A DNA stretch of 64,000 nucleotides from Candidatus Enterousia sp. (GTDB lineage: Bacteria > Pseudomonadota > Alphaproteobacteria > Rs-D84): positions 7,363-71,362 of the forward strand of contig JAZTWM010000004.1 of the NCBI GenBank assembly GCA_045635825.1. The letters run 5' to 3'. How positions within the stretch are numbered: the stretch's first letter is position 1; each line of letters starts with the position of its first letter. The translations under genes were made by a program, and so were the position numbers. Below the pieces are notes generated by a model. The model did no database searches. It was given only the letters and a program-made list of their open reading frames with translations, and had not been told where the DNA came from. This document shows, one piece after another, positions 5,594 through 63,933 of the stretch.

Positions 5594-5614
5594 ATCCCCC
5601 GGATGGGGGATTTT
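5594..5614. terminator. hairpin terminator between convergent genes
   Basis: TCCCCC-GGAT-GGGGGA followed by TTTT, preceded by AAAA. Confidence 0.7.
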
Positions 5615-6653
5615 AAATTTCCGTTATGTCTGTTATGACGGTTATGCCGGCGGATTGCCATTCTGTGATATAGTTGTCCAGATCCAGAATATTTGTCGCC
5701 CCCAGATAAATTACGGGGTGTAATTCGTGGTCGTTGGCATATTGTGTGACCTGGGCGATTGGGGATGGGCGAACCTTGCCTGATGCAAACCAGTTTTCTG
5801 TGTCAATAACCCAAAAGTCGGGGTCTGTATGGCATGCGATTGCATGGGTGTCTGTTACGATTAAGTCATTGATAATTTGGTATGGACGGTTGTTGCTTTC
5901 CAGATGCTCAACCAGTTTTGTTAGGTCTGTTGCGTAATCGGTGTTTGGTGTGTTGTTTGGGGCCTCTGTTTCTGTTTCTGTTTCTGTTTCTGTTTCTGTT
6001 GGGGCGTCAAAATCTATGGTTGAAAATGTTGGCATTTCTGTAAATACTGGTGTGTTGTCCATTTCAACAGGTATGTCAAAATCGGTTGGTAATGGGAATG
6101 TGTCGCCAGACATGTCTGTTATGTCGGATGTATTTTGTGGTGCTGTATTGATGTCGGGTGTTTGTTTGATATCAATACTGTTGAAAATAGAAGTTTGTGA
6201 TTGGCCCATGTGGTGGTGGGCGCGTCTGTATGCGGGACGTAATTCCGCAGGAATATCAGGTGATAAATCAACCTTGATGGTTTCTTCGTCTGGACCCAAA
6301 GATGGCGTGTCGCCACTTGATTCTGGTGTGGTGTCATCTGTTGCTTTTTTTGTTGGGCGTAAAAACTTTGGTAATGGGATTTTGGGCAGTGGTACCGTTA
6401 TCAATGGTTTTTTTGTGCGGATGATTAATGTTGTGCTGGCCATGTACAGGGGCAGGGCGGCCAAAATTAATAGGCCAAATACGTGCCCTGCAAATCCATG
6501 CAGGCGTGCGTGCATCAGACGGTGCCACATGTGTCCATCAAACATATTAAAATTAAACAAGAAATACAAAATTGCCCACATGACGATGATATAGCCAATC
6601 GTCCACTGTATGGCGTGTTTGTGGTTCTTGAAGATGTCTGTTATCTTTTTCAT
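5613..6653 (-). CDS. membrane protein with acidic low-complexity linker and (TE)6 repeat
   Basis: 346 aa; two N-terminal hydrophobic segments (WTIGYIIVMWAILYFLF, VFGLLILAALPLYMASTTLII); P/D/T-rich linker including TETETETETETE; globular C-terminal approx. 110 aa of unknown family. Confidence 0.7.
   Translation of the reverse strand: MKKITDIFKNHKHAIQWTIGYIIVMWAILYFLFNFNMFDGHMWHRLMHARLHGFAGHVFGLLILAALPLYMASTTLIIRTKKPLITVPLPKIPLPKFLRPTKKATDDTTPESSGDTPSLGPDEETIKVDLSPDIPAELRPAYRRAHHHMGQSQTSIFNSIDIKQTPDINTAPQNTSDITDMSGDTFPLPTDFDIPVEMDNTPVFTEMPTFSTIDFDAPTETETETETETEAPNNTPNTDYATDLTKLVEHLESNNRPYQIINDLIVTDTHAIACHTDPDFWVIDTENWFASGKVRPSPIAQVTQYANDHELHPVIYLGATNILDLDNYITEWQSAGITVITDITEI
5965..6000. repeat. 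(TCTGTT)6 hexanucleotide microsatellite
   Basis: Six perfect tandem TCTGTT units read on + strand; encode (TE)6 in the minus-strand gene 5613-6653. Confidence 0.95.
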
Positions 6654-21847: not shown

Positions 21848-24469
21848 TTATTTGTGGTCCGCACAATATCCCCATTGTGTGTTTGCGGCTGTTTCTTTGT
21901 TGAATGTTGGATGTATTGGATCGCCTGTGATGTCGTGGCAACCATCGGTCTTTTCTGTTATGCCGTCGCCCTCCGTTGAACATGTGCCGTATGCACAACA
22001 TGTTTTGTTTTGTACTTTATCTACCCAGACAGAGTCGACCCAAATACCCCCCAGGCGTTCACATTCTTGTGACAGGGCGTTTGCCATATCTATGTGCAGT
22101 TGGTTCATAACAATGTTTACGTCTTGCAGGATGTTTGTTGGTAATACATCGCTGGATTGGGATGGGCGGACGCATGTTTGCATGGCATAACGAACAAGTT
22201 TTTGATAAAGACTGCCGACATAGTCGTCGCATTCGTTATCTTCTGTGGTTGGGGAATCGCTAATTACTATTTCTTTAGGTTTGTCGGTTCCGCCTGCACA
22301 GGTGTAGCCCGAAGGGCATGGTTCGCATGTGTTGTCGACTTGAGGGGTGCTATCGGCCTTGCCGTTATATTGCATATAGTATCCAGCAGCACAACTGGTG
22401 TATGCACAAATTGGGGCGGCGGTTCCACCAGGGTATGTGCATATTGCACCTTCGCGGGCTTTTATGCATGTGTTTCCAACGGTTGGGGTGCCGTTGTGTT
22501 CTGTGCCAGATGGGCCTGCCATATAGGAACCTGCAGGGCATGATGTGTATATTTTGCCACAAGTGTATGTAGGGTCCGTTACCGGTGTTGGGCGTGTTCC
22601 TTGATAATCGTCTTGTGTTGTAGTGTTGGATTCGCCAGGGGAACCGTTACCGCCGATTGTTTGGTCTGTGCTGGTGGATGTGGTATCCTGGTTGCATTTG
22701 GCAATTGTGGCGTATTGCTGACTGCCGGGGGCATAGACACGACATGTATATGGGTAGGCGTGCAGAGTGTCGTTGCTGGGGACGGCACACATGTTTTTTG
22801 CAAAGTCTATCAGGGTTTCACGACATTGTAGGCCGATTTGCAGGTCTGTTTTGTCGTGCATTGCGGTCAGTAGTGCCTGCATCCCATCAGGGCCGCCACC
22901 ATACAGGTTTGAACATGTGTCTAATTTTTCTTGGCACATTTGTTCGGCCAGTTCCAGGCGTGCACCAATTAATAGTTGTTCGTTTGTATTGCTGAAATCT
23001 TTTAGGGATTGGGTTTGTTCGTCATAGCATTTGTTAACCACGTCAAGACATTCGTTTTTTACCTGGCGGATGCGTTCGTGTTGACCTTGGTAGATTTCTG
23101 TGATTGCCTGGCGTAGAAATTCGTCCCATACATCATCGGCCAAATCGCGACATGTGTCTAGACTGTTCTTGGCAAAAGGGCGCATGGAGTTCAGTTTTGC
23201 AATTAACATTCTGTTGGTTTGGTTTGTTAGGATGTCGCCAGATAGTGAGATTTGAGATTCCAGTTGATAAAAATTAGGGCTGTATATTGGTTCGCCGGTT
23301 TCGTATGTTAGGTACAATCCAGTGATGTCTAGACAGTGGACATAGTCTGTGCCGCATGCAGTGTTGGCTGTGATATCTGTGCGAACCAATGACATGCAGT
23401 CATTGATTGAAGATGAATTGTGGGTGTTATAGTTTTCAAGGCGGGCCAGATTCATTTCACGTTCTGTTGAACGAATGGCGCTGTTTGCTTCAACTAGTTT
23501 TTTGTCCAGACCGTTTAGTACAATTGAGCAGTCGTTTTCTATATACATGCCGTATGCAGAGACCACCATATTTTGTGTGGTTTTGTCTGGACATTTATCG
23601 ATTGTTATTTCGGCACATTGTGCGTGTACGGCATTATACAGTGCTTCGCCAGATAGGTTTGCAATATTTACGCCGCCCGTTAAATCTGTGGTTGCCCAAA
23701 TAGAGTTTATGTTGCCTGCAATATCAAGTGTGCCTTGGGTTGATAATGATTTGGTTTTGGATTTGGATAATACATCAGTGATGCCTGCAAGTTGTAGTGC
23801 GGCATCGGACGAGTCTTTGTTGGCAGATTGGTATAGTTCACCACTGGATGCGGATATCATTGCGTTAACTTCGTCTGCGGATTTATCAATTACAGACAGG
23901 TTCAGTATATGGAAATCTTGTAATGAATTTGATGACTGGCTTAGGGCGCGTTCACGTTCTTGGACGGCAGATAGTTTGGACGAGCATACGCAGCGACGGT
24001 ATGTGTCGTTGGCGGTTCCGCAAAATTGATCCATGCATGTAAAATATGCGTCACGACAAGTGTTGTATCCGGTGCCGAATGTGTTCGATTGTGTGGTGTT
24101 AAGTGTTATTGTTGCACGTGCGGTGTTTTTTGTGTTCTGGGGATTAGAACTGAGACGTATGGCTGTCTTGTTTTGTTGTGTGCGTAGGCGACTGTTGCTT
24201 GGTGTTGTGCGTGTTGTAACAGATGCGGGGGTTGCAGTGCGTGCAGATACTGTGTTTTGACGATTGGTATTTACGGGTTTTGTGGTACGTTGTAATTTGC
24301 GCTGGACCGTAGCACGTGCAGCGGTGCCTTCGTTTCGTGTGTTTGTGATGGTTCGTTGTGTGTTAGTGTTCGTGTCGCCACGATGTATAGTGTTTGCATC
24401 ACGAACAGCAGCGTCAGCATTGCAGACGCCCAGGATAATAGCCAGGGAAAGTTTTATAATCCTTCTCAT
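21848..24469 (-). CDS. secreted cysteine-rich protein (family member D) with C-terminal C-x-x-G-Y-type repeats
   Basis: Start chosen at MRRIIKLSLAIILGVCNADA (24469). T/N/R-rich linker, then TCRDAYFTCMDQFC-x9-CVC. C-x6-C pairs (ECLDVVNKC, MCQEKLDTC). C-terminal SCPAGSYM, SCAAGYYM and EPCPSGYTCAGG repeats. Confidence 0.8.
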   Translation of the reverse strand: MRRIIKLSLAIILGVCNADAAVRDANTIHRGDTNTNTQRTITNTRNEGTAARATVQRKLQRTTKPVNTNRQNTVSARTATPASVTTRTTPSNSRLRTQQNKTAIRLSSNPQNTKNTARATITLNTTQSNTFGTGYNTCRDAYFTCMDQFCGTANDTYRRCVCSSKLSAVQERERALSQSSNSLQDFHILNLSVIDKSADEVNAMISASSGELYQSANKDSSDAALQLAGITDVLSKSKTKSLSTQGTLDIAGNINSIWATTDLTGGVNIANLSGEALYNAVHAQCAEITIDKCPDKTTQNMVVSAYGMYIENDCSIVLNGLDKKLVEANSAIRSTEREMNLARLENYNTHNSSSINDCMSLVRTDITANTACGTDYVHCLDITGLYLTYETGEPIYSPNFYQLESQISLSGDILTNQTNRMLIAKLNSMRPFAKNSLDTCRDLADDVWDEFLRQAITEIYQGQHERIRQVKNECLDVVNKCYDEQTQSLKDFSNTNEQLLIGARLELAEQMCQEKLDTCSNLYGGGPDGMQALLTAMHDKTDLQIGLQCRETLIDFAKNMCAVPSNDTLHAYPYTCRVYAPGSQQYATIAKCNQDTTSTSTDQTIGGNGSPGESNTTTQDDYQGTRPTPVTDPTYTCGKIYTSCPAGSYMAGPSGTEHNGTPTVGNTCIKAREGAICTYPGGTAAPICAYTSCAAGYYMQYNGKADSTPQVDNTCEPCPSGYTCAGGTDKPKEIVISDSPTTEDNECDDYVGSLYQKLVRYAMQTCVRPSQSSDVLPTNILQDVNIVMNQLHIDMANALSQECERLGGIWVDSVWVDKVQNKTCCAYGTCSTEGDGITEKTDGCHDITGDPIHPTFNKETAANTQWGYCADHK

Positions 24470-24539
24470 TCGTGTATATATATAATATACTTTACCAAAA
24501 AATGGTTTTTTTAACAAGAAAAATACATAAAGATGCTAT

Positions 24540-24815: not shown

Positions 24816-24965
24816 TTGTTTATCCCTTGGATTTTTCTGCAATTTCTGGGGTGTATGATATTGGTTTTGGGTGAAAAAAGCAAGAGTTTTTTATTTGCTT
24901 GTTAAAATTGTTAAGTTTTGATAAAATAAAGTAATAAAATCTATCTTGATGAGGGGTGTAGTCTA

Positions 24966-27152
24966 ATGAAAATAAGAATTCTTGCGACCTTGCTGGTGTT
25001 AATACCGGGTGTGTCTTTTGCTGCACAGCGTAGTGAACAATCGCGTGTTGGGGTTAATCGTGTGGCAATGGCGGGTGTTCGTGGACCGAATATGACCAAG
25101 ACGTTGTCTTCGACGACTAAGCCGACTGTGCCCTTGAATCCAGGTGACGGTACGGATAAAAACCCAGGGGATGCGGATGATGAAGATGATGTTGTAGATT
25201 CTGGTGATAAAGAAGATTCAACAGATAATGATGCGGATGTTAATCCAGATGCCGGTGATGAAGTGATTACGGACGGTGACTGTCGCGAGGCGTATCGTGC
25301 ATGTATGGATGAGTTTTGCTTGTTAGATGAATCAGAAGGGTATCGTTGTGCGTGTTCGGATAATATAAATCAAGCAAAGTCCTTGATTCAAGAAATTCAG
25401 CGTATTCAGGCAGAGGCGGATAAATTGTACACCGAAGAAGTTGAGCGTATTCAATTGGGGGCCAAGGCTAAGTTGGTATTTGGTGAAAGTGAGGCGGCAA
25501 AGAAGAGTTCGCGTGCATCGGGTTTGAGTTTTGCAGAATGGTTAAAGAGTGGTGATGACGATTCTGAATCTTTGGATGCAGACGAGTATATTGGTGATGG
25601 TTTATATGGAATGGCTGCTGATTTTTGTCAGGCGGAATTAAAGGCGTGTGGTGCCAAGGCAGATATGGAAGAAATGTTGTATCTGCGTCAGGTGACGGCA
25701 GATTGTAAGACGTATAATTATTATTTGGCGGATCAAAAAACAAATGCAGAGTCGAATAAGAGGACGGCAGAAGCGGCGGTTCGTCAGGCCCGTTTGGCGA
25801 TGCTGGATACAACGGATAAATATAATCGTGGTGAATGTTTGTTGGCGTATCGTTCTTGTATTGCAGACAAGGGTGGGTGTGGTAACAATTTTGAAAACTG
25901 TTTAGATGCAGATTTGCTGGGGCGTCGTGCACATGCGTGCGAAAATGTATTAGATCAATGTATGGCGTCACGCAGTTATGTTTTGCAGGACTGGGAGGCC
26001 GAGGCTGAGGCTATTTTAGTAGATGCTGCAAAATATGCGGATAAATATCGCAGACAGACATGTTTGGCACAGATTCAGGTTTGTTTAGAAGATGGTTGTT
26101 CGACTGCAACGAATTCGGCGTGTTTGTCCGATGTGAATGTTGCAGCAGGTGTTTGTCCGATTATTGATGAGTGTGATTCTATTATCCCAGGGTTAAAGAC
26201 AGTTGTTAATGATAAGTTGGGATATTTGCGTACACAGTTCTGTCAAAATGATGTTGATGCGTGTTTGAAGGATAAATGTGGTGCGAACTTTACGGCACCC
26301 GAATGTATCGGTAAAACGCCTGCACAAATTGTTGAATTGTGTCCACAGACAATGTTCCCATCATGTAAGAACGAAACGCAATATGATATTATTGTATCGG
26401 CGGCGGTATTGCAGATGGATTATCAGTTGATGCAGGGGTGTGTGAATTATTTTGGTGAACAGTTGGGTAAGACATGTGGAACAGACATGTCATGTTTGCC
26501 AAGCGATGATACTGTTGTTGGGTTGACTGATGTTCCGGGGTCTGAACAAGAAATGATTGAATTGCGTGCACGTGTGCGTGATAATGCCAAGGTTGCGGTT
26601 GATGGCTTCTTTGAAAAGTTTGAACAGGATAAGACGGTTGCAGCCTGTGCTGATGCTGAAAAACCAACAGGTAAAAATAGTTTAGGGGTCACTGTATTTA
26701 ATACGGCAAAGTTGATTGCGTATATTGGTGCAGAAAATCGTGCAATGCGTGAATTGGAAACCAAGATTTCCGAATTGTCGCGTAAACAGGATTTGGCCAA
26801 GGCAGAAGAAACATGTTATTCTATGTTCAAGCCAGAGACGCCAAAAACAGGTGATAAGAACTATAGTTATATTCGCAGTGTAGTTTTTGAACCAGCGTTG
26901 CGTAATTGTCATGTGTGCCGTATGCAACAGGTTTGTGAAACGGGTGGTGAATCCAAGGCAACGTCTGCATTAAAAGCGGCCGGCGGTGGATTGGCCAGTG
27001 GTGCTGCAATGGGTACAATGGTTAATGCAGGTTGGGGTACGGCCATTGGTGGTATCGTTGGTGCGGTTGGTGCCGGTATCGGTGGTGCATTGTCTGGTGG
27101 ACAAGAAGAGTTCTGTCAGCAGATTGAATCTTGTGAAGATGTTAATATGTAA
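24966..27152 (+). CDS. secreted cysteine-rich repeat protein (family member B)
   Basis: 728 aa. Signal peptide MKIRILATLLVLIPGVSFA and an acidic linker, then DCREAYRACMDEFC-x9-CAC. Modules ECLLAYRSCIADKGGCGNNFENC and FCQNDVDACLKDKCGANFTAPEC. Gly-rich hydrophobic segment at aa 668-712 and tail IESCEDVNM. Confidence 0.85.
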   Translation: MKIRILATLLVLIPGVSFAAQRSEQSRVGVNRVAMAGVRGPNMTKTLSSTTKPTVPLNPGDGTDKNPGDADDEDDVVDSGDKEDSTDNDADVNPDAGDEVITDGDCREAYRACMDEFCLLDESEGYRCACSDNINQAKSLIQEIQRIQAEADKLYTEEVERIQLGAKAKLVFGESEAAKKSSRASGLSFAEWLKSGDDDSESLDADEYIGDGLYGMAADFCQAELKACGAKADMEEMLYLRQVTADCKTYNYYLADQKTNAESNKRTAEAAVRQARLAMLDTTDKYNRGECLLAYRSCIADKGGCGNNFENCLDADLLGRRAHACENVLDQCMASRSYVLQDWEAEAEAILVDAAKYADKYRRQTCLAQIQVCLEDGCSTATNSACLSDVNVAAGVCPIIDECDSIIPGLKTVVNDKLGYLRTQFCQNDVDACLKDKCGANFTAPECIGKTPAQIVELCPQTMFPSCKNETQYDIIVSAAVLQMDYQLMQGCVNYFGEQLGKTCGTDMSCLPSDDTVVGLTDVPGSEQEMIELRARVRDNAKVAVDGFFEKFEQDKTVAACADAEKPTGKNSLGVTVFNTAKLIAYIGAENRAMRELETKISELSRKQDLAKAEETCYSMFKPETPKTGDKNYSYIRSVVFEPALRNCHVCRMQQVCETGGESKATSALKAAGGGLASGAAMGTMVNAGWGTAIGGIVGAVGAGIGGALSGGQEEFCQQIESCEDVNM

Positions 27153-27186
27153 GTTGTAATTGTTACGAGGTTTATGGAGAGAGAAA

Positions 27187-29682
27187 ATGAGACATTTTGG
27201 TTTTTTGTGTTCTGTTTTTGCGTTGTTGGCTGCGTTGCCTGTTGCTGACGTGTCAGCAGCGGCTGCAAAAAAGGCGACAAAACAGTCTGCGATTCAGTCT
27301 GGAACCAAGGTTCGTACCAAGACAGATGCGTCTGGTTTGTATGATCAGGAATGTTATGATGCGTATTATGGCTGTATGGATCAATTCTGTATATCTGAAA
27401 ATGAAAATGGTGGCAGCTGTGCGTGCAGTGATTTAAGTTTGCAATATGATAAGCAATTTTTGGAAATTCAGGAAATCTTGGCCGAGGCAGATCGTATTTC
27501 AACGGAAGAGGTGGAAAAGGTAAAAGCCGGTGCAAATGCGGATATTGTTTTCACAGGAAAACGTGAATATGATGATGATGGAAATCTGGTTGATGTAGAT
27601 GATATTGGGAAAAATGATAAGTCTAAAAAACGTGCAGATTTGTTGTCGTTGTGGGATGAAAATGTTGAGGAAGACGAAGAAGAATTTGGCAATACAATTG
27701 GTAATATTGCAGATTTGACGGGTGCGGCTTTGTACAAAGCGGCAGAAGAACTGTGTTTGGATCAGGTTCCAGATAGTTGTGAATCAGATTTGCCTTTGTT
27801 GCAAAGTATGTATTCCAGACAGATTACATCGGATTGCAAAGGTTTTGAAAATAGTTTGAAGGCCAAACGTATAGAGGCGGATAATGCATTGGCGGCTGCA
27901 AATGCAGATGTGCGTAATGCATTAAAAGAAAGTTTTGACAGTGCAAATAAGTATGATTTGGGTCAATGCATGGTTGCCTTTAAAAAGTGTATGCAGACCG
28001 ATGATGCCTGTGGTAAAAATTGGGAAAATTGTGTTGCGACAATAGCCTCGGAAAATATGCAGAATAACAAAGCACAGAGTACGGCTGGCACAAAGGTTAA
28101 GACGGTTGATGTTTATGATATCACTGCATCAACAATGGAGGTTTTGGATTCCAAGCGTATGATATGTGAAAACGTATTGGGGCAGTGTATGGCGGTGCGT
28201 GATAAGGTTTGGCCCGCATTCCTGCGTGAGGCGGCACCAACAATCAAGGTTGCAGAAGCGTCTGCAGAATCAAAGTTCCGTCAATCGTGCTTAAGCAGTA
28301 TTTCCACATGTATTCACAAGGCCTGTAAAGATGATATTGCAGGCAAGGGGGTAGAGACAATGGATGCGTGTTTGTCACGACCAGATATGGCACGCAGTTT
28401 TTGTAAGGTTGAAATTGACCCTTGTGAAAGAATGGAACCGCTGATTTGGGGATATGTTGTTGATAAATTGGCGGCGATGCGTGTTGATGCATGTACACAA
28501 GAGGTCAAAGATTGCTTTACAGCAGACACACGTTGTGGCAAGGATTTTGAAAATTGTATTGGTATGGACTATGACTATATCCATGATATTTGTCCAGTTG
28601 ATAGTTTGGTTGTCTGCAAGGCGAATAATCCTGCTTTTTCAATGGATGATTTAGATTCTATGCTGATGGGATTGTATTTGAACATTGATAATGCAGCACT
28701 GGATCAATGTCAGGATTTGATTGACCGTAAAATGGCCGAGGTTTGTGGCAGTACAACAGACTGTAACAGGTTCGCGGCCGATGATACCATTGGTGCGGGC
28801 AGTATTCGTTCCCAAAAAGATGGGACTAAATATCGTGTGACGGGAATGATTTCATTTGGATCAATTAAAATGGGATCGGCCAATGGTTTAACACGTGACG
28901 AAGGGGATGATGAGACAACACGTTTGAAGCCAGGTGAGATTGGTGTGCAGGAATATTTGACACGTGTTCGTGAATTGAATGCAGGTGTGCCAAATGCGGA
29001 TGGCATTATTGCATCGATTGAAGAAGAATTGAATAATATTGCGGGTACCATTAATCGTACAATTGAAATGATTGAACAGGATCCAGAAATTCAGTTCTGT
29101 GTAAGCGGGCGTGATTTGTCACAGATTACAGGAAAGAAGGGCGATAAAACAAGTGCCCGCTTCCCAAATCTGCTGAATCAGGTTAAGTTACAGATTGCGG
29201 TCTCGGCATTGCGTCAGGCACAGGATAACTATAATGCCAAGTTTAATCAGGCAGTATCTGAGGCGACCAAGGATGCGGATGCGGACCTGGCACAGTATAT
29301 GTGTCATAAGATGGCTGAAAACAGTGCGACAACTTTGAAAAGTCCAACGGTTGATTTGGCACCGCCATATGCAATTAGTTACGAGGTTGGAACTGGACTG
29401 ATCGCAGAAGATTTAACAGCCGGTGGTCATGGTAAGACGGATTTAGGTAAGGTTAGTTATAAAAATAGTGGTTATTTGGGGAAAAGCAGTGGGGATTTGA
29501 ATGCTGGTACCAAAGAAACAACAGCGATATTTAATCGTGATACCAGGGTTTGTCACATCTGTACAACAACTGTTACCCAGTCTTGTAAAACAACAGGGTC
29601 TAAGTCGTGGTTCCATAATAACAGAAACACGTCTTGTACAACAAATGCACCGATTGAAAAGTGTGAAGATGTACAAATGTAA
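27187..29682 (+). CDS. secreted cysteine-rich repeat protein (family member C)
   Basis: ATG at 27187 (RBS GGAGAGAG) gives MRHFGFLCSVFALLAALPVADVSA, followed by ECYDAYYGCMDQFC-x9-CAC. Modules QCMVAFKKCMQTDDACGKNWENC and ACTQEVKDCFTADTRCGKDFENC. Tail IEKCEDVQM. Collinear with member A but lacks the Gly-rich hydrophobic segment. Confidence 0.85.
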   Translation: MRHFGFLCSVFALLAALPVADVSAAAAKKATKQSAIQSGTKVRTKTDASGLYDQECYDAYYGCMDQFCISENENGGSCACSDLSLQYDKQFLEIQEILAEADRISTEEVEKVKAGANADIVFTGKREYDDDGNLVDVDDIGKNDKSKKRADLLSLWDENVEEDEEEFGNTIGNIADLTGAALYKAAEELCLDQVPDSCESDLPLLQSMYSRQITSDCKGFENSLKAKRIEADNALAAANADVRNALKESFDSANKYDLGQCMVAFKKCMQTDDACGKNWENCVATIASENMQNNKAQSTAGTKVKTVDVYDITASTMEVLDSKRMICENVLGQCMAVRDKVWPAFLREAAPTIKVAEASAESKFRQSCLSSISTCIHKACKDDIAGKGVETMDACLSRPDMARSFCKVEIDPCERMEPLIWGYVVDKLAAMRVDACTQEVKDCFTADTRCGKDFENCIGMDYDYIHDICPVDSLVVCKANNPAFSMDDLDSMLMGLYLNIDNAALDQCQDLIDRKMAEVCGSTTDCNRFAADDTIGAGSIRSQKDGTKYRVTGMISFGSIKMGSANGLTRDEGDDETTRLKPGEIGVQEYLTRVRELNAGVPNADGIIASIEEELNNIAGTINRTIEMIEQDPEIQFCVSGRDLSQITGKKGDKTSARFPNLLNQVKLQIAVSALRQAQDNYNAKFNQAVSEATKDADADLAQYMCHKMAENSATTLKSPTVDLAPPYAISYEVGTGLIAEDLTAGGHGKTDLGKVSYKNSGYLGKSSGDLNAGTKETTAIFNRDTRVCHICTTTVTQSCKTTGSKSWFHNNRNTSCTTNAPIEKCEDVQM

Positions 29683-29683
29683 T

Positions 29684-29712
29684 AAAAAACCGCCAATTAA
29701 TGGCGGTTTTTT
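29684..29712 (+). terminator. rho-independent terminator
   Basis: ACCGCCA-ATTAA-TGGCGGT followed by T6. Confidence 0.85.
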
Positions 29713-36282: not shown

Positions 36283-39200
36283 ATGTCCCATACAAAACAT
36301 TTGGCGGATTTGTTGAAAGTCTGCAGTATTTTGCCAGCCTTGGTAATTATGCCTGCAATGGCGGAAAGTCTTTCGGAACGTCAGGTTATAACACAAGATA
36401 AAACATATAAGAATTTGACGATTGATGGCATCTCTTCTTCTGTTGCAAATAACGGTGGTGTTTTTTATTTAGAGGATGTTCAGGATGTGCTTTTGACTTT
36501 TAAAGGCGAAAGTAAGTTTGTTAACAACTCTATTCTTAATGGTGGGATGGGAGCTGTTATTGGTAATGGTTGGTTGTCTACGAAGGATGCTGATAAATGG
36601 AATCCATATACACCAGGCGGTCATATACTTTTTGATGGTGATACATTATTTATGAATAATACAACTAATAATGCAAATGGGGCTGGGGCGATATTTAATT
36701 ATGGTATTGGAACAGTGGATAATCCAGATATTTTATTTAATGGAGAGGCGGAGTTCATTGGAAACTCGTCTACTGGGGTGAGTAATTCTTTTTGTGTCGG
36801 TGGTGGGGCGATATACCATCGTGATGGGATGATTGTATTTAATGATGATGCGAATTTTGTTGCTAATTCCTCGGCATCAAAGGGTGGGGCGATTATGGCC
36901 GCTGGTGATATTGTATTTAGGGGCGAAGCAGATTTTGAGGAAAATAAGGCCTCGTCCCAGGGTGGTGCATTAGCCATTTTGGGTGGTAATGTTGTTTTTG
37001 AAAAGGAGGCAAGTTTTAAAAATAATTCTGCGAATGCTGGGGCAGCGATATCTATGGATGCATCAAATGCGTCTGTAACATTTAAGGATTTTGTGTTGTT
37101 TGATAGAAATACAGGGACTGCTACATTGTGGAATAATTCTTCTACTGGGACAGTTGTGTTTGAAAATGGTGCCAAGTTCTATCAAAATACAAATACTCAA
37201 AATGGAACTTTGCAGAATGCGGGTGATGTGACTTTAAATTCTGGTGATTTTGTATTTATGCATAATACAGGTGGAAATGGTGGCGGTCTAAAAAATGTTG
37301 GGACGGTTACTGTAAATACCGATGGTGATGTGTTGTTTGATACAAATATTACCAAGTCTACTGGTGCTGCGGTTGATAATGGTGGGACTTTAACATTAAC
37401 GGCAGCAAATGTATCGTTCTTGGGAAATACATCTGATGCAGGGTATGCAGGTGCGATATTTAATTCAGGTGATATGAGCATCTTGGGCGCAACAAATGTG
37501 TTCAGCAATAATATTGCTAAGGATACAGGAACAACCAAGCACGGTGGTGGCGCAATTCATAATCGCGGAGCTAAGGGGACTACAACATTGGTTCTTGGAA
37601 CGAAAGACAGTGTGAATGTCTTTAGTGCTAATCAGTCGAATGCACATGGTGGGGCAATTGTTGCACGTGCGTTTGATGGAGATACACAAAATTCAGAAGT
37701 AGTTATAAATGGTGATACAACATTTGTTGGTAATACTGCGGCATTAAATGGTGGTGCAATTTGGAATAATGTGGCAAAAAGTGGATCTACAACAGGGACA
37801 GCAAGTTTTGCCATAAATGGTGAGGTTGAATTTAAAAATAATATTGCAAATGGTGTTGGCGGTGCAATCTTTAATGGATCGCAAATGACAATTGCCAAGG
37901 CAGAATTTGATGAAAATATTGCGTACGGTAATTATGCGGGTGCGATTTATAATTCTGCATCTGGTGATATTGCAAATGTAGTTGCGGATTTTGATGAAAA
38001 CAAGGTCTTGAATGATAACTTTGCTGCGGGTGGTGCAATTGCTAACATAGGAAAAATTGGTAGCCTGACAGGTTTATTTGAAGAAAATGTTGTAAATGCA
38101 ATGGCAGGCGATGTTTATGCGACTGCTAAGGGAGGTGCGATTTATACATATGCAGGTTCTTCTATTGAATCAATTGTTGCGGATTTTGATGGCAATTCAG
38201 CTGTAAGTGCTGGAGATGCAATAGGGGGGGCAGTAGTAAATGATGGGGTTGTTGGTGTGTTGAGTGCCGAGAAATATGGTTTTGTAAACAATGCTGTAAC
38301 TGCCAAAGCGAATGCATGGGCAGGTGCATTGTATAACAGCCAAGATGCGATCATTAATGAGTTGTCCGCAAGCTTTACTGGAAATTCAGCAAATGGAACG
38401 GATTGGGCGATTGGTGGTGCAGTGGTTAACTTTGGTACATTGAATGTGACATCTGGGGTGTACGCTAATAATTCAGTTAGTGCTTCTGCTAAAGAAGGTT
38501 ATGCTATGGGTGGTGCAATCTATAATGCCAATGTGCTGAATTTTGTTGGTGACGTTGAATTTAGAAACAATGTGGTAAGTGGTGCAAGAGATTATGCATA
38601 TGGTGGTGCGATTTATAATGACGGCACACTGAATTTTGATGCCAATGCGTTGTTTGCGAATAATACGGTGGCAGGTGGTGCAAATGATATTTATAACGCA
38701 GGAATTATAAATGTTAATAAAGATGCTGTTTTGACATTGGATGGCGGTATTATTGGCGAAGGTTCTGGTGTGATAAACATTGCCCATGGTGCCACAATGA
38801 ATATCGGTACTGCAGTAGTCGAGCAGGCAGAAATAAATATTGATGGTACTGTTGTTGCATCTGTTTTAAGCAATCGTTCTTATGGTCGTTTGTTTGGTGA
38901 CATTAATGCAGGTCAGCTTGCTGAGTTGCAGTTAAATGTTGGTGCAGCTGGTTCTTATACAATATTTAGAGATGACGTGGATATTAAAGTGTCGGCTGGT
39001 AAGGCATATGATGCAGCGGTTTTAGAGGATGGTACAGTTGTTATTACAACAAAATCTGTTGCAGATATTGCGGATGATGCTGGTATTTCAACACAGGCGG
39101 CGGGTGCAGTTGCAAGTTTGGCAAATACAACCAGCAACAAAGCACATCGTGTATCATTGGCGTTGCAAGAAGCATTGAATGCAGGTGATGCAGCATATGT

Positions 39201-40125
39201 AGAGGCAGAGACAGCCAAATTGAACCCAACAGATAAGCCTGTTGCCCAGGCGGCGACAACATCTGTGCAGAATCAGGTTTTGTCATTGGCGTCAGGCCGT
39301 ATGAGCGGTGGCATGTCCGTTGGTCGTTCGGGTGGTGACGAGTATGCCCAAGAAAATGGTTTCTGGATTCAGGGGCTGTTTAATAAGTCAAAGTTTGCAG
39401 ATCAATTCCATGGATATACACGTGGGGTTGCATTGGGTGCGGATACTTTGATTGATCGTAAATGGACAATTGGTGGTGGTTTGGCATTTAATGGCAGCGA
39501 TGTTCATGCCAGAAATGGTGCACATACCAGTATTGATACCAAAACATTGTTCTTGTATGGTCAGTATAAGCCAAACAATTGGTTCGTAAATGCGACTGCA
39601 ACATATTCTATGTCTGAATATACAGAAAATAAAACTGTTGCAGGTGTTGGACTGGGGGCATCCTATGATGTTGATGCATATGGTGCACAGTTTATGACCG
39701 GTTACGATTTTGCGACAGGTATCACAACACAGGCGGGTATGCGTTATCTGTATATTGCCCAGGATTCGTACATTGATGATCGTGATGCACAAATCATGGC
39801 GACAGATACGGATTTCTTGACAGGTGTTGCAGGGCTGAAATATGCGTTCGCAATTGAAAATGATTGGGCAATCCAGATTCGACCAGAATTGTCAGCGTCT
39901 GTGACATATGACTTTGTCAGTGATGATTCTGCAACAACGGTTGTGACCCCAGGGGTAGAAGCGTATGCGGTAAACGGTAATCGTTTGTCACGTATTGGTG
40001 GGGAATTTGGTATTGGCTTCACCGCACAGTATAAAGGTGTTGAAATGTCCCTGATGTACGATTTGGATTTGCACAAAGATTATACATCCCAGACAGGTAT
40101 GTTGAAATTGCGTGCCCAATTCTAA
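36283..40125 (+). CDS. autotransporter with Pmp-type (GGA[ILV] / FxxN) passenger repeats
   Basis: 1280 aa, RBS AAGGAG. Signal region ...ALVIMPAMAES. Dozens of GGAI[YFW]N and F[VIEK]xN repeats. C-terminal beta-domain (GFWIQGLFNKS...LKLRAQF). Confidence 0.9.
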   Translation: MSHTKHLADLLKVCSILPALVIMPAMAESLSERQVITQDKTYKNLTIDGISSSVANNGGVFYLEDVQDVLLTFKGESKFVNNSILNGGMGAVIGNGWLSTKDADKWNPYTPGGHILFDGDTLFMNNTTNNANGAGAIFNYGIGTVDNPDILFNGEAEFIGNSSTGVSNSFCVGGGAIYHRDGMIVFNDDANFVANSSASKGGAIMAAGDIVFRGEADFEENKASSQGGALAILGGNVVFEKEASFKNNSANAGAAISMDASNASVTFKDFVLFDRNTGTATLWNNSSTGTVVFENGAKFYQNTNTQNGTLQNAGDVTLNSGDFVFMHNTGGNGGGLKNVGTVTVNTDGDVLFDTNITKSTGAAVDNGGTLTLTAANVSFLGNTSDAGYAGAIFNSGDMSILGATNVFSNNIAKDTGTTKHGGGAIHNRGAKGTTTLVLGTKDSVNVFSANQSNAHGGAIVARAFDGDTQNSEVVINGDTTFVGNTAALNGGAIWNNVAKSGSTTGTASFAINGEVEFKNNIANGVGGAIFNGSQMTIAKAEFDENIAYGNYAGAIYNSASGDIANVVADFDENKVLNDNFAAGGAIANIGKIGSLTGLFEENVVNAMAGDVYATAKGGAIYTYAGSSIESIVADFDGNSAVSAGDAIGGAVVNDGVVGVLSAEKYGFVNNAVTAKANAWAGALYNSQDAIINELSASFTGNSANGTDWAIGGAVVNFGTLNVTSGVYANNSVSASAKEGYAMGGAIYNANVLNFVGDVEFRNNVVSGARDYAYGGAIYNDGTLNFDANALFANNTVAGGANDIYNAGIINVNKDAVLTLDGGIIGEGSGVINIAHGATMNIGTAVVEQAEINIDGTVVASVLSNRSYGRLFGDINAGQLAELQLNVGAAGSYTIFRDDVDIKVSAGKAYDAAVLEDGTVVITTKSVADIADDAGISTQAAGAVASLANTTSNKAHRVSLALQEALNAGDAAYVEAETAKLNPTDKPVAQAATTSVQNQVLSLASGRMSGGMSVGRSGGDEYAQENGFWIQGLFNKSKFADQFHGYTRGVALGADTLIDRKWTIGGGLAFNGSDVHARNGAHTSIDTKTLFLYGQYKPNNWFVNATATYSMSEYTENKTVAGVGLGASYDVDAYGAQFMTGYDFATGITTQAGMRYLYIAQDSYIDDRDAQIMATDTDFLTGVAGLKYAFAIENDWAIQIRPELSASVTYDFVSDDSATTVVTPGVEAYAVNGNRLSRIGGEFGIGFTAQYKGVEMSLMYDLDLHKDYTSQTGMLKLRAQF

Positions 40126-41750: not shown

Positions 41751-42401
41751 ATGAAATTAGAGTCAAATGGTATTTTAATTGGATTGCGTCCATTTAATGA
41801 ACGTGATGCAATTGCACAAATCTTTAGCCAGGATTTTGGTGTCGTGGTGGGGATGTTGCGTGGTGCAAATATTGCAAAAAAGAATAAGCCTTTGTTGGGG
41901 CAGTATGGTCATATGGTGTGGAATGCGCGCCTGGATTCGCAATTGGGGACAATGCATTGGGATATAGAAAAGAATTTGTCGGTTGCATTGTTAATGTCGC
42001 CTGACAAATTGTCCTGTATGAATGCGGGATTTGAATTGTTGGTCACATTGTTGCCAGAACGTCAGGCGTATCAAGAATTGTATGAAGAAACGATTCGTTT
42101 AATGTTTGGGTTGGCGTCAGATATGCCGAATGCATATTTAAATTGGGAAGTCGCTTTGTTGCGTGAATTGGGCTATGCACTGGATTTGTCCAGGTGTTCA
42201 GGATGTGGGACATTAAATGATTTGAATTATTTGTCGCCACGTACCGCACGTGCGGTTTGTGATTCGTGTGCCAGACCATATTTGAATAAACTGTATCGAT
42301 TGCCTGTGGATTTAGGGGTGACGGGACGCTTTCTGGAAAGTGTCTGTAATCAACAGGGTGTTAATATTCCAGTAATGCGAAAAATGTTAAAATTGGATTG
42401 A
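41751..42401 (+). CDS. recO: DNA repair protein RecO
   Basis: ATG at 41751 gives MKLESNGILIGLRPFNERDAIAQIFSQDFGVVVGMLRG (OB-fold N-terminus). C-terminal Cys cluster CSGCG...CDSC. Confidence 0.8.
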   Translation: MKLESNGILIGLRPFNERDAIAQIFSQDFGVVVGMLRGANIAKKNKPLLGQYGHMVWNARLDSQLGTMHWDIEKNLSVALLMSPDKLSCMNAGFELLVTLLPERQAYQELYEETIRLMFGLASDMPNAYLNWEVALLRELGYALDLSRCSGCGTLNDLNYLSPRTARAVCDSCARPYLNKLYRLPVDLGVTGRFLESVCNQQGVNIPVMRKMLKLD

Positions 42402-42478
42402 TTTTATCCAGAATTATTTCTTGCGATTTTGATAATTTTTGCTATGGTGATTTTGTTCAACAGAAGAAGGAGAAAATC

Positions 42479-43303
42479 ATGACTTGGACAATCTTGGTGC
42501 TGGTATTGGGTATTGCGCTGTTCATGTTTGGCGGTATGTTGCTGAAACAGGATGCGAAAAAACCATCTGCCGGTGTAAAAATGGTTAAAAAAGCAATCAA
42601 AGTTATTGCAATCATCATGGTCGCAGGCAGTGTTTGCCGTCTGTATGTTCCATATTATTTGACAAGCGTTAACCCAGCAATCATTCAGGAAATGGTTGAA
42701 GGTATGCAGGCACAGCAGAATGCAGAAAAGAATAAAGCGATTCGCAAATATGTTCGTGAATCTGCAGATGAAATGACAGAAAATGCACCAATCTTGGGTA
42801 ACAAAGACGCAGAAAAAACAATCTATGTTTGGACAGCTGCTTCTTGTGGTTACTGCCGTCGTGTACACGGTGAATTGGATCGTGTTTTGAAATCACGTGA
42901 TGATGTGAAGGTTGTTTTGAAAAACTTCTCTATCCATGGCGTAATGTCTGATGGCCCAGCACGTGCAATGATTGCTGCAAAAATGCAAGATGGTGACAAG
43001 GCAGCAAAGTTTGCAGACTTGGTTATGACACGTGAATATCGTCCATCTGAACAGATTAAAGATCAGGACAAATTGGCGGCTGCAATTGAAAAGAACTTGA
43101 TGAAGTTTGCAACAGAAGCAGGTTTGGATGCAGACCAGTTGAAAAAAGATATGACAAGTGATGTTGTCGCACGTGAATTGACAAATGTTCGTGAATTGGC
43201 GAATCGTTTTGAAATCACAGGTACACCATTCTTGATTATTGGCGAAGAAGCGTTCCCAGGTGCAATCCCAGCGGATCAAATCAACGCAGCATTGGATAAA
43301 TAA
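42479..43303 (+). CDS. membrane-anchored DsbA-family thiol:disulfide oxidoreductase
   Basis: ATG at 42479 with RBS AAGGAG. Two N-terminal TM segments, CGYC active-site motif (VWTAASCGYCRRVH) and ITGTPFLIIGEEAFPGAIP (cis-Pro loop region). Confidence 0.85.
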   Translation: MTWTILVLVLGIALFMFGGMLLKQDAKKPSAGVKMVKKAIKVIAIIMVAGSVCRLYVPYYLTSVNPAIIQEMVEGMQAQQNAEKNKAIRKYVRESADEMTENAPILGNKDAEKTIYVWTAASCGYCRRVHGELDRVLKSRDDVKVVLKNFSIHGVMSDGPARAMIAAKMQDGDKAAKFADLVMTREYRPSEQIKDQDKLAAAIEKNLMKFATEAGLDADQLKKDMTSDVVARELTNVRELANRFEITGTPFLIIGEEAFPGAIPADQINAALDK

Positions 43304-61942: not shown

Positions 61943-63805
61943 TTAAAACTGTAACTTTGTTTTAGTTAACATATATATTTCGTCTGTGCCGTAGGGGTTG
62001 TCTACAAAGCCCATTGTAAATGATTTGTAGGATGCAGTGATTTCAATAGATGGACGGGCTGCCATATTGATAGTTTGGTTGGTAAATGTATAGTTTCCGT
62101 TTACACTGCGTCCAGTTGGCGTGTTCAGGAACATGTTGCCGTTGATAATTGTGTCTGGTGCACCAATACTGAATGTAAAATCACCATATTTTGCACCGAT
62201 AGATACGGATGCGGTGTATGTATCAGAGAAATCATTAACCATTGATTCTGCTGATGGGGTTGGGTTCATTGTGCCGAATGTTGCAGAATAAAACAGTTTT
62301 GTGTCTTTGATGTTGATTTCATCACCCCAGCCCAGATAGGCGATTGTGTTTTTTGAATCTGTTGCTAAAAAGCCATCGGACATCAGCAGGTCTGTATTTT
62401 TGAACCCGAATTCCAGGTTCCCGAATTTGATGCTGTGATTATCTGAGTGATTGCGTAGGCGTTCAAATCCCAGACCACGATTTTTAATGCGGATGTTGTC
62501 GTTCAGGTTTGTTTCAAATGCACGACCATAACTGTCGATAAATGCGAATTTAATGTCGGCAGATTTAATGTTGTGTGCCATTGTGCCTGTGACGGTTGCA
62601 CTGCGAAGTGTTGTGGTTGTGCCATCGGCCAATGGGATTAGTTCTGTGCCAACTGGACGGGTGGCACGTTCCAGGTCCAGCATACCATGGCCATATATTT
62701 CATCGACCCCGGCAACACCTAAGTCACGTGCGGTTTCGAATAACAGTGCGGTAATTTGTGTTGCCTGCATGTATGGGAATGCTTCGCGTAAAACAGCAAT
62801 TGCGGCGGATACAATTGGGGTGGCAAAGCTGGTTCCGTTTAGTGTTCCTTCTGCTTTGGGTGATTCGATGTTTGTGCCAGGTGCGGTTATGCAATATTCT
62901 TTTGTGATGCCACATTGGTTGCTGAAATCAGCCAATGTGCCGGCATCTGTATCCCATGCGACAACATTTACAAAGTGACCTGATAATTCTGTGACATGCA
63001 GGGGCAGGGCAGATAGGGCGCTGGATTGACTGTTGTAATCATTGCCGGCGGCCCATACAAATATTGCATCGTTTTTTGATGCGGCGTTTGTTAAGGAATT
63101 GATAAAGTTTGTATCTGTTAAGTGTTCCAGATGGTTGCGGTCATGGATTTGTGTGGCAGATATGTTTGCAGACCAACTGAAATTGTAAATGTTGGCACCT
63201 TGGGCGGTGGCAGTGTTAATTGTGTTGCCGATTGTGTTATATGTTTCAAACACGCCGTCCCGATTTGCGACCTGATATGATTGGATTGTGGCGGATGGGG
63301 CGATTGGTGTTCCGGCCAGATATGCAACATTGCCACCATGAAATGTATTTTTGCCAGAGTCAAATACTGCGATGGTCGAGCCTGCACCCGTATATCCACG
63401 TGCCAGGGAATATGCCAGAAGAATGTCATTGTATTGTTCGGTGTTGCGTGCATATTCGGTTGTGTTCATTATGGATGCCAGTTGAATATTGTCAATGTCG
63501 TTGCCAACCAGTCTGTGGGTTGGTGCCATTGGCAGGGCGACAGATGGTCTTTCGCTTTGGGTTTCGTTATCACTGTTAGAAGAAGATGAACCGAATAGGG
63601 CGATTGTGCCACCGATTAATGCGGCGGCACCAGATGTGATGGTGGCAACGCTGGCAAAGGAAAGTGCAGAATCTGTATCATAGTTTTGGCATTTTTCTGG
63701 ATTATAGCGACGATACATTTCATTGTCGCAATTATTTGCCAAGGCAGTGGTGCAGAATATTGCACCTGATAGCAATCCAACCAAGAATCTAGCGTGTCGT
63801 TTCAT
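61943..63805 (-). CDS. subtilase (S8) serine protease with C-terminal beta-barrel-type domain
   Basis: ATG at 63805 gives MKRHARFLVGLLSGAIFCTTALA. Triad context IAVFDSG, NTFHGGN, WAAGND and GTSFATP. C-terminal alternating beta-strand region ends in TKTKLQF. Confidence 0.85.
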   Translation of the reverse strand: MKRHARFLVGLLSGAIFCTTALANNCDNEMYRRYNPEKCQNYDTDSALSFASVATITSGAAALIGGTIALFGSSSSNSDNETQSERPSVALPMAPTHRLVGNDIDNIQLASIMNTTEYARNTEQYNDILLAYSLARGYTGAGSTIAVFDSGKNTFHGGNVAYLAGTPIAPSATIQSYQVANRDGVFETYNTIGNTINTATAQGANIYNFSWSANISATQIHDRNHLEHLTDTNFINSLTNAASKNDAIFVWAAGNDYNSQSSALSALPLHVTELSGHFVNVVAWDTDAGTLADFSNQCGITKEYCITAPGTNIESPKAEGTLNGTSFATPIVSAAIAVLREAFPYMQATQITALLFETARDLGVAGVDEIYGHGMLDLERATRPVGTELIPLADGTTTTLRSATVTGTMAHNIKSADIKFAFIDSYGRAFETNLNDNIRIKNRGLGFERLRNHSDNHSIKFGNLEFGFKNTDLLMSDGFLATDSKNTIAYLGWGDEINIKDTKLFYSATFGTMNPTPSAESMVNDFSDTYTASVSIGAKYGDFTFSIGAPDTIINGNMFLNTPTGRSVNGNYTFTNQTINMAARPSIEITASYKSFTMGFVDNPYGTDEIYMLTKTKLQF

Positions 63806-63933
63806 ATCTTTTCTTTCCCTTGGGTGGGGTACCATACCCGCACACTATTTAATATAGTACTAATGGCGTGTTTGTCAATAGAAAAAGGGTGTTTTTTTAT
63901 GGTTTTGGTTGGGTGATTTTTTTATATTTTTAC

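Follow-up and report, generated by a model that had tools for sequence, protein, structure and literature searches.

OmcB and OmcA of Chlamydia are cysteine-rich proteins of a disulfide cross-linked outer membrane complex. In the β-signal of outer membrane proteins (OMPs) the last residue is F, W or Y and hydrophobic residues alternate at −3, −5, −7 and −9, and the tripartite sorting signals (LPXTG/sortase, PEP-CTERM/exosortase, GlyGly-CTERM/rhombosortase) combine a motif, a transmembrane helix and a basic end. The locus compared with these systems here is a pair of tandem genes, B and C, in a 64,000-nt stretch of DNA from Candidatus Enterousia sp. (contig JAZTWM010000004.1, positions 7,363–71,362; hereafter the window), encoding cysteine-rich proteins that share a conserved tail at the extreme C-terminus with a third protein, A. 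This tail may well be a structural strand carrying two Cys that clasps a membrane-contacting loop to a β-hairpin, a reading to which we give a probability of roughly 0.55. Judging from sequence, A, B, C and a fourth paralogue, D, form a previously undescribed, lineage-restricted family of Cys-rich, Sec-exported, putative envelope proteins, whose function is likewise presumptive. Candidatus Enterousia belongs to the order Rs-D84, widespread uncultured gut Alphaproteobacteria with genomes under 1 Mb, which lack respiratory chains, have few recognisable transporters and are thought to depend on a partner organism; their numerous ‘hypothetical membrane-bound proteins’ have been flagged as the likely partner interface (PMC12306168).

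Several features of the window recall the chlamydial case: a set of Cys-rich, Sec-exported, presumed envelope proteins in a reduced-genome and probably partner-dependent diderm, accompanied, as in Chlamydia, by a Pmp-repeat autotransporter (36283–40125) and a periplasmic thiol-disulfide oxidoreductase. The autotransporter (forward strand, 1280 aa) has Pmp-type repeats (PF02415, 31.7 bits), a β-domain (PF03797, E 4e-31) and the end ...KLRAQF; a membrane-anchored DsbA/DsbG-like thioredoxin-fold protein (42398–43303, forward strand) has an N-terminal membrane segment, a CGYC site and a probable start at Met27. Unlike OmcB and OmcA, however, the window proteins have no Pfam match to chlamydial OMP families and no Foldseek match, and their fold is predicted to be α-helical. 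No homology to chlamydial Cys-rich OMPs or to Giardia VSP-type proteins was found (Pfam and NCBIfam at E up to 1, PDB profile search, Foldseek), and the likeness is, on this comparison, one of analogy and not of membership. The window also encodes a SurA/PpiD-like chaperone, LptC, LptB, an OmpA-family protein and a small β-barrel protein; since DsbA/DsbG-like, SurA/PpiD-like and LptC/LptB genes occur together in it, the predicted gene set fits a diderm with periplasmic disulfide formation.

About 25% of the window is taken up by eight Cys-rich ORFs (open reading frames) with signal peptides, which is a great deal of coding capacity for a genome under 1 Mb; four of the eight belong to the A/B/C/D family. 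The genes, with the N-terminal motif of B, are as follows.

2629–5589, forward strand: gene A, a paralogue of 986 aa with the tail VETCNDTQF at nt 5560–5586.
21848–24517, reverse strand: gene D, an ORF of 889 aa with probable start ATG 24469, the fourth full-length paralogue.
24966–27152, forward strand: gene B, 728 aa with 36 Cys in the mature protein.
25278–25355, forward strand: family-defining N-terminal Cys motif of B, DCREAYRACMDEFCLLDESEGYRCAC (aa 105–130), the best-conserved island among the paralogues.
27187–29682, forward strand: gene C, 831 aa from ATG 27187, with 36 Cys in the mature part.

Pairwise BLASTP bears out the initial annotation of B, C and A as collinear paralogues (A–C, 33–35% identity over about 750–930 residues, E about 1e-124; B–C, 29%, E about 1e-50; A–B, 25%, E about 1e-46) and adds D, a full-length paralogue overlooked there, with 20–23% identity to A and C (E about 1e-21). 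D is divergent to B, with infA in between. All four proteins have a Sec signal peptide, the N-terminal motif Y-x-[GAT]-C-M-D-[QSE]-F-C...C-x-C and a collinear Cys pattern, with 32–34 invariant Cys columns in alignments of 84 and 90 sequences. The signal peptide of B is followed by an acidic disordered linker, a Cys-rich helical rod and a C-terminal cassette split by a glycine zipper, that of C by a Cys-rich helical rod and an intact C-terminal cassette without a glycine zipper; the even number of 36 Cys in each mature protein would be compatible with complete pairing. The motifs originally quoted for A, B and C are all present, but AMRVDxCTxEVKxC and IExDPxxQ[YF]C, given as common to B too, are motifs of A and C, with only weak counterparts in B (LRTQFCQNDVDAC and FEQDKTVAAC).

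Each query retrieved about 1000–1300 homologues from a collection of 5.8 billion proteins, unnamed or annotated as ‘hypothetical protein’. Those carrying an organism name all come from metagenome-assembled genomes of Alphaproteobacteria, and represent reduced-genome gut members of that class (Candidatus Enterousia, the order Rs-D84 and termite-gut “Rickettsiales” genomes). Among sequences clustered at 50%, a profile built from the four paralogues matched 996 representatives at E ≤ 1e-3 and 476 at E ≤ 1e-30, the most distant name-bearing ones being termite-gut ‘Rickettsiales bacterium’ assemblies; when species-representative genomes were scanned, at least 589 relatives were confirmed. The ORF-based counts of tail and cassette were made on the best 77 related loci plus the window. 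The source assemblies of these loci are from gut, rumen or faeces, carry the labels Candidatus Enterousia, Alphaproteobacteria or ‘uncultured Rickettsiales’, and include one circular genome, complete at 958,618 bp. When a family hidden Markov model (HMM) built from the four paralogues was searched against all ORFs of this set, 121 family ORFs were identified, of which 113 are full length. At E up to 1 the eight Cys-rich ORFs gave only sub-threshold noise in Pfam and NCBIfam scans (for example EGF_Pikachurin, CCDC28 and TIGR04104), the family profile found no relative among PDB sequences (best E 3.3), and no description of the A/B/C/D family was found in the literature on Enterousia, Rs-D84 and cysteine-rich envelope proteins.

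The tails read initially as IESCEDVNM (B), IEKCEDVQM (C) and VETCNDTQF (A) are confirmed. Those of B and C are placed as follows.

27111–27149, forward strand: tail of B, FCQQIESCEDVNM (aa 716–728), predicted last β-strand, nearly invariant among orthologues.
29653–29679, forward strand: tail of C, IEKCEDVQM (aa 823–831), predicted last β-strand.

Identity of these two tails at 7/9 positions (P = 0.0035 per window at 29% background identity) is by itself not decisive, and about three such windows are expected per 800-residue alignment, which favours a trivial origin by chance; a second trivial origin would be conservation at the DNA level, through overlap with a downstream ribosome-binding site or terminator. 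The weight is carried by the family-wide data. The strict terminal motif C-x-x-[ITVLYF]-x-[FMY] ends 60 of the 113 full-length family ORFs and none of the 481 other ORFs that reach 250 aa, and is thus conserved well beyond the copies in the window. All C orthologues (120/120) end in C-x8-C-E-D-[IV]-x-M, those of B end almost without variation in ...E-F-C-Q-E-I-E-S-C-E-D-[IV]-N-M, and the tail is kept in hundreds of orthologues at 62–99% overall identity. Its codons vary synonymously (Ser as TCT, TCC or AGT, Ile as ATT, ATC or ATA, and four Pro codons), and because synonymous codons vary freely selection acts on the protein sequence of the tail; DNA-level constraint was rejected on the same observation, and both the terminator and the ribosome-binding site lie outside the coding tails. 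By the motif counts, the C orthologues and the codon variation, a trivial origin is effectively refuted and retains next to no probability.

Across 71 distinct tails the protein ends with the consensus C-K-x-W-x-[DE]-P-V-E-x-C-x-D-[IT]-Q-[FM]. A weak end without the last Cys, [ITVL]-x-[FMY], occurs in 14 further members of the 113 and in 7/481 non-family ORFs; the weak-end members form an ‘IKM’ class ending ...C-x-x-F-x-E-P-x-x-x-T-x-x-I-K-M, and neither end is present in 39/113. Among the best 150 of the 50%-cluster representatives, 28 have the strict and 18 the weak tail. Of about 430 occurrences of the motif in 632 family sequences, 423 are at the protein end; rare members run 3–38 residues beyond it, and it is never an internal repeat. 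The alternative that the tail merely belongs to an ordinary internal module, which the initial annotation had itself allowed for, is thereby ruled out; as a copy of an internal module the tail was rejected for want of internal W-x-[DE]-P-x-[ET]-x-C copies. A likeness had also been seen in the end of the short protein at 12026 (EIACDTID), but this 288-aa protein has a conserved end of its own (CKFYxxACxx[IL][DKN] in orthologues from 38 loci), was rejected as a tail bearer, and shares with the A/B/C/D family one internal 23-aa Cys module only (E 8e-5).

On the scale of the whole protein the tail stands out less than was initially implied. The strongest conserved island between paralogues is the N-terminal CMDxFC, and the Cys-centred islands CMDxFC, NKYDLGQC, CENVLxQC and RQxCL are conserved as much as the tail or more. 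In consensus sequences of the paralogues the terminal 9-residue window ranks 40 of 823 for A=B=C (82 ties); its rank is 27 for B=C and 220 for A=C. Among B orthologues the last 12 residues are exceptionally conserved, with an entropy of 0.13 where the mean is 0.66 (rank 68 of 717); among A orthologues they are average (1.13, mean 1.03; rank 641 of 975).

The tail always lies within a C-terminal cassette of about 55 residues. In A-type proteins this reads W-N-Y-K-E-T-I-T-x-T-F-x-W-x-x-L-x-C-x-x-C-x5-6-C, a loop, and C-K-x-W-x-D-P-V-E-x-C-x-D-T-Q-F; cassette plus a C-x-[DTE]-[ITV]-x-[FM] tail end are present in A, B and C and not in D, which ends in WGYCADHK and has neither. The cassettes and hydrophobic segments of A, B and C are as follows.

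5167–5352, forward strand: hydrophobic Gly/Ala segment of A (aa 847–908), upstream of the intact cassette.
5422–5586, forward strand: intact cassette of A (aa 932–986).
26862–26939, forward strand: cassette β-hairpin of B, YSYIRSVVFE / LRNCHVCRMQQVCE (aa 633–658), with C-x2-C-x5-C and predicted strands 633–642 and 645–658.
26940–27110, forward strand: Gly/Ala-rich, glycine-zipper-like hydrophobic insertion of B (aa 659–715) in the loop between hairpin and tail, modelled with confidence below 50 (pLDDT, see below).
29506–29679, forward strand: intact cassette of C (aa 774–831), made up of GTKETTAIFN, VCHICTTTVTQSCKTT, the loop GSKSWFHNNR, NTSCTT and IEKCEDVQ(M).

In B the cassette is split into the hairpin part (aa 633–658, ...NCHVCRMQQVCE) and the tail (aa 716–728) by a 57-residue Gly/Ala-rich segment. 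The Gly/Ala-rich segment reported for B and A, and its absence from C, are confirmed; because the B segment splits the cassette and that of A lies upstream of an intact one, these hydrophobic ‘anchors’ are insertions at different sites. Loop length between hairpin and tail ranges from 7 to 178 residues while the loop site is fixed: 7–12 residues in A-type proteins (K-x-K-N-P-[LWFM]-F-G-x-K-Y), 14–19 in C-type (KGSKSWFHN in the window, KKGFLGIGxK in most orthologues), 59 in B and up to 178 in termite-gut relatives. A hydrophobic pair, usually flanked by Lys, is found in 189/209 distinct loops, a composition that we infer from sequence to be typical of membrane-interface loops. Among strict-tail sequences 70/86 have five Cys in the last 62 residues plus one ending the preceding helix; the six Cys of this region are at 617, 648, 651, 657, 717 and 723 in B and at 706, 789, 792, 800, 817 and 826 in C. 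A cassette HMM searched against all ORFs of the 77 loci and the window matched family members or their fragments only, with 60/67 matches terminal.

AlphaFold2 (AF2) models of B (84-sequence alignment; mean predicted local distance difference test score (pLDDT) 70.8, predicted template modelling score (pTM) 0.40) and C (90-sequence alignment; mean pLDDT 74.5, pTM 0.44) agree in predicting that the cassette β-sheet closes with the tail as its final strand. B is modelled as an all-α rod (aa 106–621), strands at 633–642 and 645–658, a low-confidence loop (660–715) and the tail strand (716–727), and C as the same rod with a C-terminal sheet (774–783, 788–803, 814–819 and 823–830) whose cassette blocks have pLDDT 74–84, about 83 at the tail strand. 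The split-cassette architecture was derived from AF2 secondary structure and manual comparison, the first MAFFT alignment having mis-aligned the B hairpin. Foldseek searches of both models against PDB gave no match at E up to 0.001; the best matches of B were generic helical rods (E above 1), and the best short matches of C, to secretin β-domains and levivirus coat proteins (E about 0.7–3), are not relied on.

The favoured reading, that the tail is a structural clasp, accommodates these features as follows. B and C would be co-transcribed, Sec-exported, disulfide-rich envelope proteins in which a long α-helical rod stapled by Cys pairs leads into the cassette, made up of a β-hairpin with C-x2-C-x5-6-C, a loop with a basic/hydrophobic tip and the tail W-x-[DE]-P-V-E-x-C-x-D-[IT]-Q-[FM]. 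The tail Cys pair would be disulfide-bonded to the hairpin and to the Cys ending the last helix (presumed partners), forming a covalent clasp at the base of the loop, and the loop would be the membrane-contacting element, with the identity of the membrane likewise presumed: a short interfacial tip in A- and C-type proteins, a 59-residue glycine-zipper hairpin in B, and up to 178 hydrophobic residues in distant relatives. Since the tail must return and pair with the hairpin, membrane insertion would be re-entrant or involve an even number of crossings. On this reading the tail owes its conservation to being one half of a split structural domain, and it is not a detachable address label. Homology, family-wide conservation, C-terminal position, restriction to the family, selection at the protein level and loop variability at a fixed site are direct observations.

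Several points weigh against the clasp. The localisation is entirely inferred, the AF2 models are only moderately confident overall, and the hairpin and tail strands of B have pLDDT of only about 54–71. About 35–50% of family members, D included, lack the cassette. A structural strand is not obviously in need of an exact C-terminus or of an F/M end, and F or M ends >95% of tail-bearing members, as would be the case for a motif recognised through its free carboxylate. The disulfide, moreover, is not the sole constraint, because the IKM subclass keeps E-P...[IV]-K-M and loses the last Cys.

The last points would also fit a recognition signal read via the free C-terminus and guiding assembly, quality control or surface delivery, comparable to the β-signal read by the β-barrel assembly machinery (BAM) or to the Y-x-F ends bound by PDZ domains of periplasmic proteases (DegS, DegP, Prc). 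As in the β-signal, the tail is a predicted β-strand at the exact C-terminus (the 423 of about 430 occurrences given above), with a Phe end in most A-type members and a β-branched residue at −3. All 71 distinct tails end in F, M or Y (44, 24 and 3, respectively), −3 is always I, T, V or L and −9 is V or I. Genuine barrel proteins of the window end in ...KLRAQF and ...KLRYMF, and the IKM subclass retains the terminal hydrophobic pattern without the Cys. However, terminal Met (34%, or one third) is atypical of a β-signal, −5 (T/E/S/N) and −7 (T/S/K) are polar and not hydrophobic, the strand contains conserved Cys and acidic residues, and AF2 predicts a helical rod with a small sheet of 3–5 Thr-rich polar strands and no barrel. 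Some members also run past the motif, as noted, and no dedicated sorting gene was seen beside the family genes. A signal read by general machinery would, in addition, normally be common to unrelated cargo, whereas this motif is limited to one family: a tail regular expression run over 17,543 stop-to-stop ORFs found family members or frameshifted fragments only, and the other secreted Cys-rich families and the two autotransporter-like proteins of the window lack the tail. Being confined to one family among the ORFs searched, the tail is not a portable signal. A recognition role of this kind is, on balance, unlikely.

The tripartite sorting signals offer a similarly partial likeness, namely a short conserved motif and a hydrophobic segment near the C-terminus of secreted proteins. 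In the A/B/C/D family the order is reversed, with the hydrophobic segment first and the motif last, the end is acidic and not basic, the hydrophobic segment is optional (none in C) and at different sites in A and B, and the motif is confined to one protein family. No sortase, exosortase or rhombosortase was reported in domain scans of the larger window ORFs, some of which were scanned with one library only. That conservation of the tail marks a sorting or secretion signal, as the initial annotation suggested, is thus not borne out, the tail being non-portable, reversed in layout and predicted by AF2 as a strand, and a sorting role is not supported by architecture or distribution. The accompanying distinction between anchored and possibly released forms survives as a difference in anchors but is too simple, since the loop site that holds the zipper in B holds a short basic/hydrophobic tip in C-type proteins, and C is more likely peripherally membrane-associated or partnered with B than freely released.

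Glycine-zipper outer membrane proteins (Rickettsia 17-kDa antigen, Pcp, SlyB) are the closest parallel to the B insertion itself. Like them, B has about 45 residues of G-x-x-x-G/A repeats (GGIVGAVGAGIGGALSGG); the G/A-x-x-x-G/A pattern covers about 40 uncharged residues of aa 670–712 (LKAAGGGLASGAAMGTMVNAGWGTAIGGIVGAVGAGIGGALSG). The ends of the segment return to the same side, the flanking strands being read as paired in the AF2 model, as expected of a two-helix glycine-zipper hairpin dipping into a membrane leaflet. Profile matches of B are sub-threshold (NF053611, YiaD_Gzip_OmpA, E 0.052, 13.2 bits, cut-off 175; PF10439, E 0.58, 10.6 bits, cut-off 27.1). B differs from these proteins in lacking a lipobox, in that its zipper is a loop insertion in a disulfide-rich β cassette ending a 600-residue helical rod, and in that zipper length varies from 0 to about 180 residues among its relatives. 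Similar segments occur in the window Cys-rich ORFs at 6786–8879, whose product matches a glycine-zipper model at E 0.0029 (17.7 bits, below the cut-off of 28.9), and 9950–12004.

The arrangement of B and C was described as head-to-tail with a 34-nt gap, which is correct once C starts at ATG 27187. The listed ORF begins at TTG 27160, but the true start is almost certainly, from sequence features, ATG 27187, because GGAGAG (27176–27181) precedes it and 120 orthologues have lengths of 817–856 aa. The flanking elements are as follows.

24899–24947, forward strand: two overlapping promoter-like sites upstream of B, sigma-70-like by consensus match only.
27153–27186, forward strand: B–C spacer of 34 nt with the Shine-Dalgarno-like GGAGAG at 27176–27181.
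29684–29712, strand not assigned: palindromic terminator-like hairpin, AAAAAACCGCC-ATTAA-TTGGCGGTTTTTT, directly 3′ of the C stop codon and followed by a T-run.

No terminator-like site was found between B and C; with the hairpin after C and the promoter-like matches before B, this suggests that the two genes probably form one transcript or operon.

A further reading makes the cassette an interface between subunits. Separate chains would be joined through their tails and hairpins by β-augmentation, possibly with intermolecular disulfides, and tandem partners (B with C; elsewhere A′ with A) would form membrane-held hetero-oligomers or a ring. B–C adjacency is kept in every case open to testing, namely the window, the related loci L016, L077 and L004 and consecutive NCBI locus tags of three genomes, and in 14/20 tandem pairs on the same strand one member is anchored and the other anchorless, both tailed (11 with A′, no anchor, followed by A, anchored; 3 with B, anchored, followed by C, none). 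Non-significant Foldseek hints point to oligomeric β-domains of PilQ, GspD and InvG (E about 1, probability 0.8–0.9, about 85 columns). The 14 pairs, however, reduce to two ancestral pair types and are not independent events, so the pattern carries little weight; AF2 monomers already satisfy the tail within one chain, and the Foldseek matches fall short of significance. We consider this interface more doubtful still than a recognition signal. A tandem A′–A pair is absent from the window and present in L014, L017, L020, L022, L024, L025, L026, L029, L034, L008 and L066, at about 7–16 kb of each locus; the upstream copy lacks and the downstream copy has the hydrophobic segment, and both end ...C-x-D-[IT]-Q-F.

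A bolder version, which we hold to be quite improbable, more so than any of the foregoing except a trivial origin, would make the cassette a new membrane-attachment and oligomerisation module, in which long polar strands pair between anchored and anchorless subunits in a ring or barrel-like collar, with loop tips or zippers in the outer membrane and the 600-residue rods at the surface. If this were true, the free C-terminal [IT]-Q-[FM] would be the strand closing the assembly, and the rods could be the main contact apparatus with the partner cell.

Other cysteine-rich proteins lie close to the family genes. In the C-terminal third of D, modules of the form C-P-x-G-[ST]-Y / C-A-A-G-Y-Y recur that recall Cys repeats of the eukaryotic furin-like or VSP type, with a weak Pfam hint only (DUF7631, E 0.19), and D-type orthologues have a WGYC motif near the end followed by a variable extension. 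The product of 6786–8879 (forward strand), a Cys-rich secreted protein of 697 aa with 24 Cys, is distinct from the family; it has two short segments resembling glycine zippers and a conserved end of its own, C-[IV]-E-N-Y-P-V-A-K-S-[YH]-G-A-C-[EK]. Its homologues, found in 48 further loci, mostly lie a few kb downstream of the A-type gene. Two tandem conserved Cys-rich secreted proteins of 684 aa and 288 aa are encoded at 9950–12892 (reverse strand) and are syntenic in about 38–40 loci, the 684-aa protein (9950–12004) having a poly-Q/PAQQ low-complexity stretch and a variable C-terminal half. Convergent to gene A, 5613–6653 (reverse strand) encodes a 346-aa membrane protein with a (TE)n repeat and an acidic tail, and adjoins a family gene in 37 of the 49 loci that have it.

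Further putative surface proteins include the product of 13838–17461 (forward strand; 1207 aa), with a signal peptide, weak N-terminal ankyrin-repeat matches (E 0.003, below cut-off) and a β-rich, barrel-like C-terminal part, possibly an autotransporter-like protein with a eukaryote-type interaction domain. A 630-aa subtilisin-like (S8) protease (61943–63835, reverse strand) resembles mycosin and autotransporter proteases (E about 1e-23, below equivalog cut-offs) and is a candidate processing enzyme for surface proteins. The 225-aa ORF at 13042–13719 (forward strand) has a (PQPK)n repeat, two N-Q-V-V-A-N-G-N-R-[AG]-A-V-V-T-G-N copies and no family match. GC skew is positive in every 2-kb bin (0.05–0.35) and cumulative skew rises monotonically across 1–64000, which places the whole window on one replichore with the forward strand as the leading strand.

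Taken as a whole, the family is a variant within the broad class of disulfide-rich, glycine-zipper-anchored envelope proteins, distinguished by an unusual split C-terminal cassette, with a presumptive function and localisation. If the tail is only a structural strand, the outcome is a solid family description and not a new sorting pathway. With the architecture defined, roughly 1000 sequence clusters that no database model covers become accessible to annotation, and a physiological question arises: how a fermentative anaerobe without quinone-linked respiration oxidises proteins with 36 Cys and re-oxidises its DsbA/DsbG-like enzyme.

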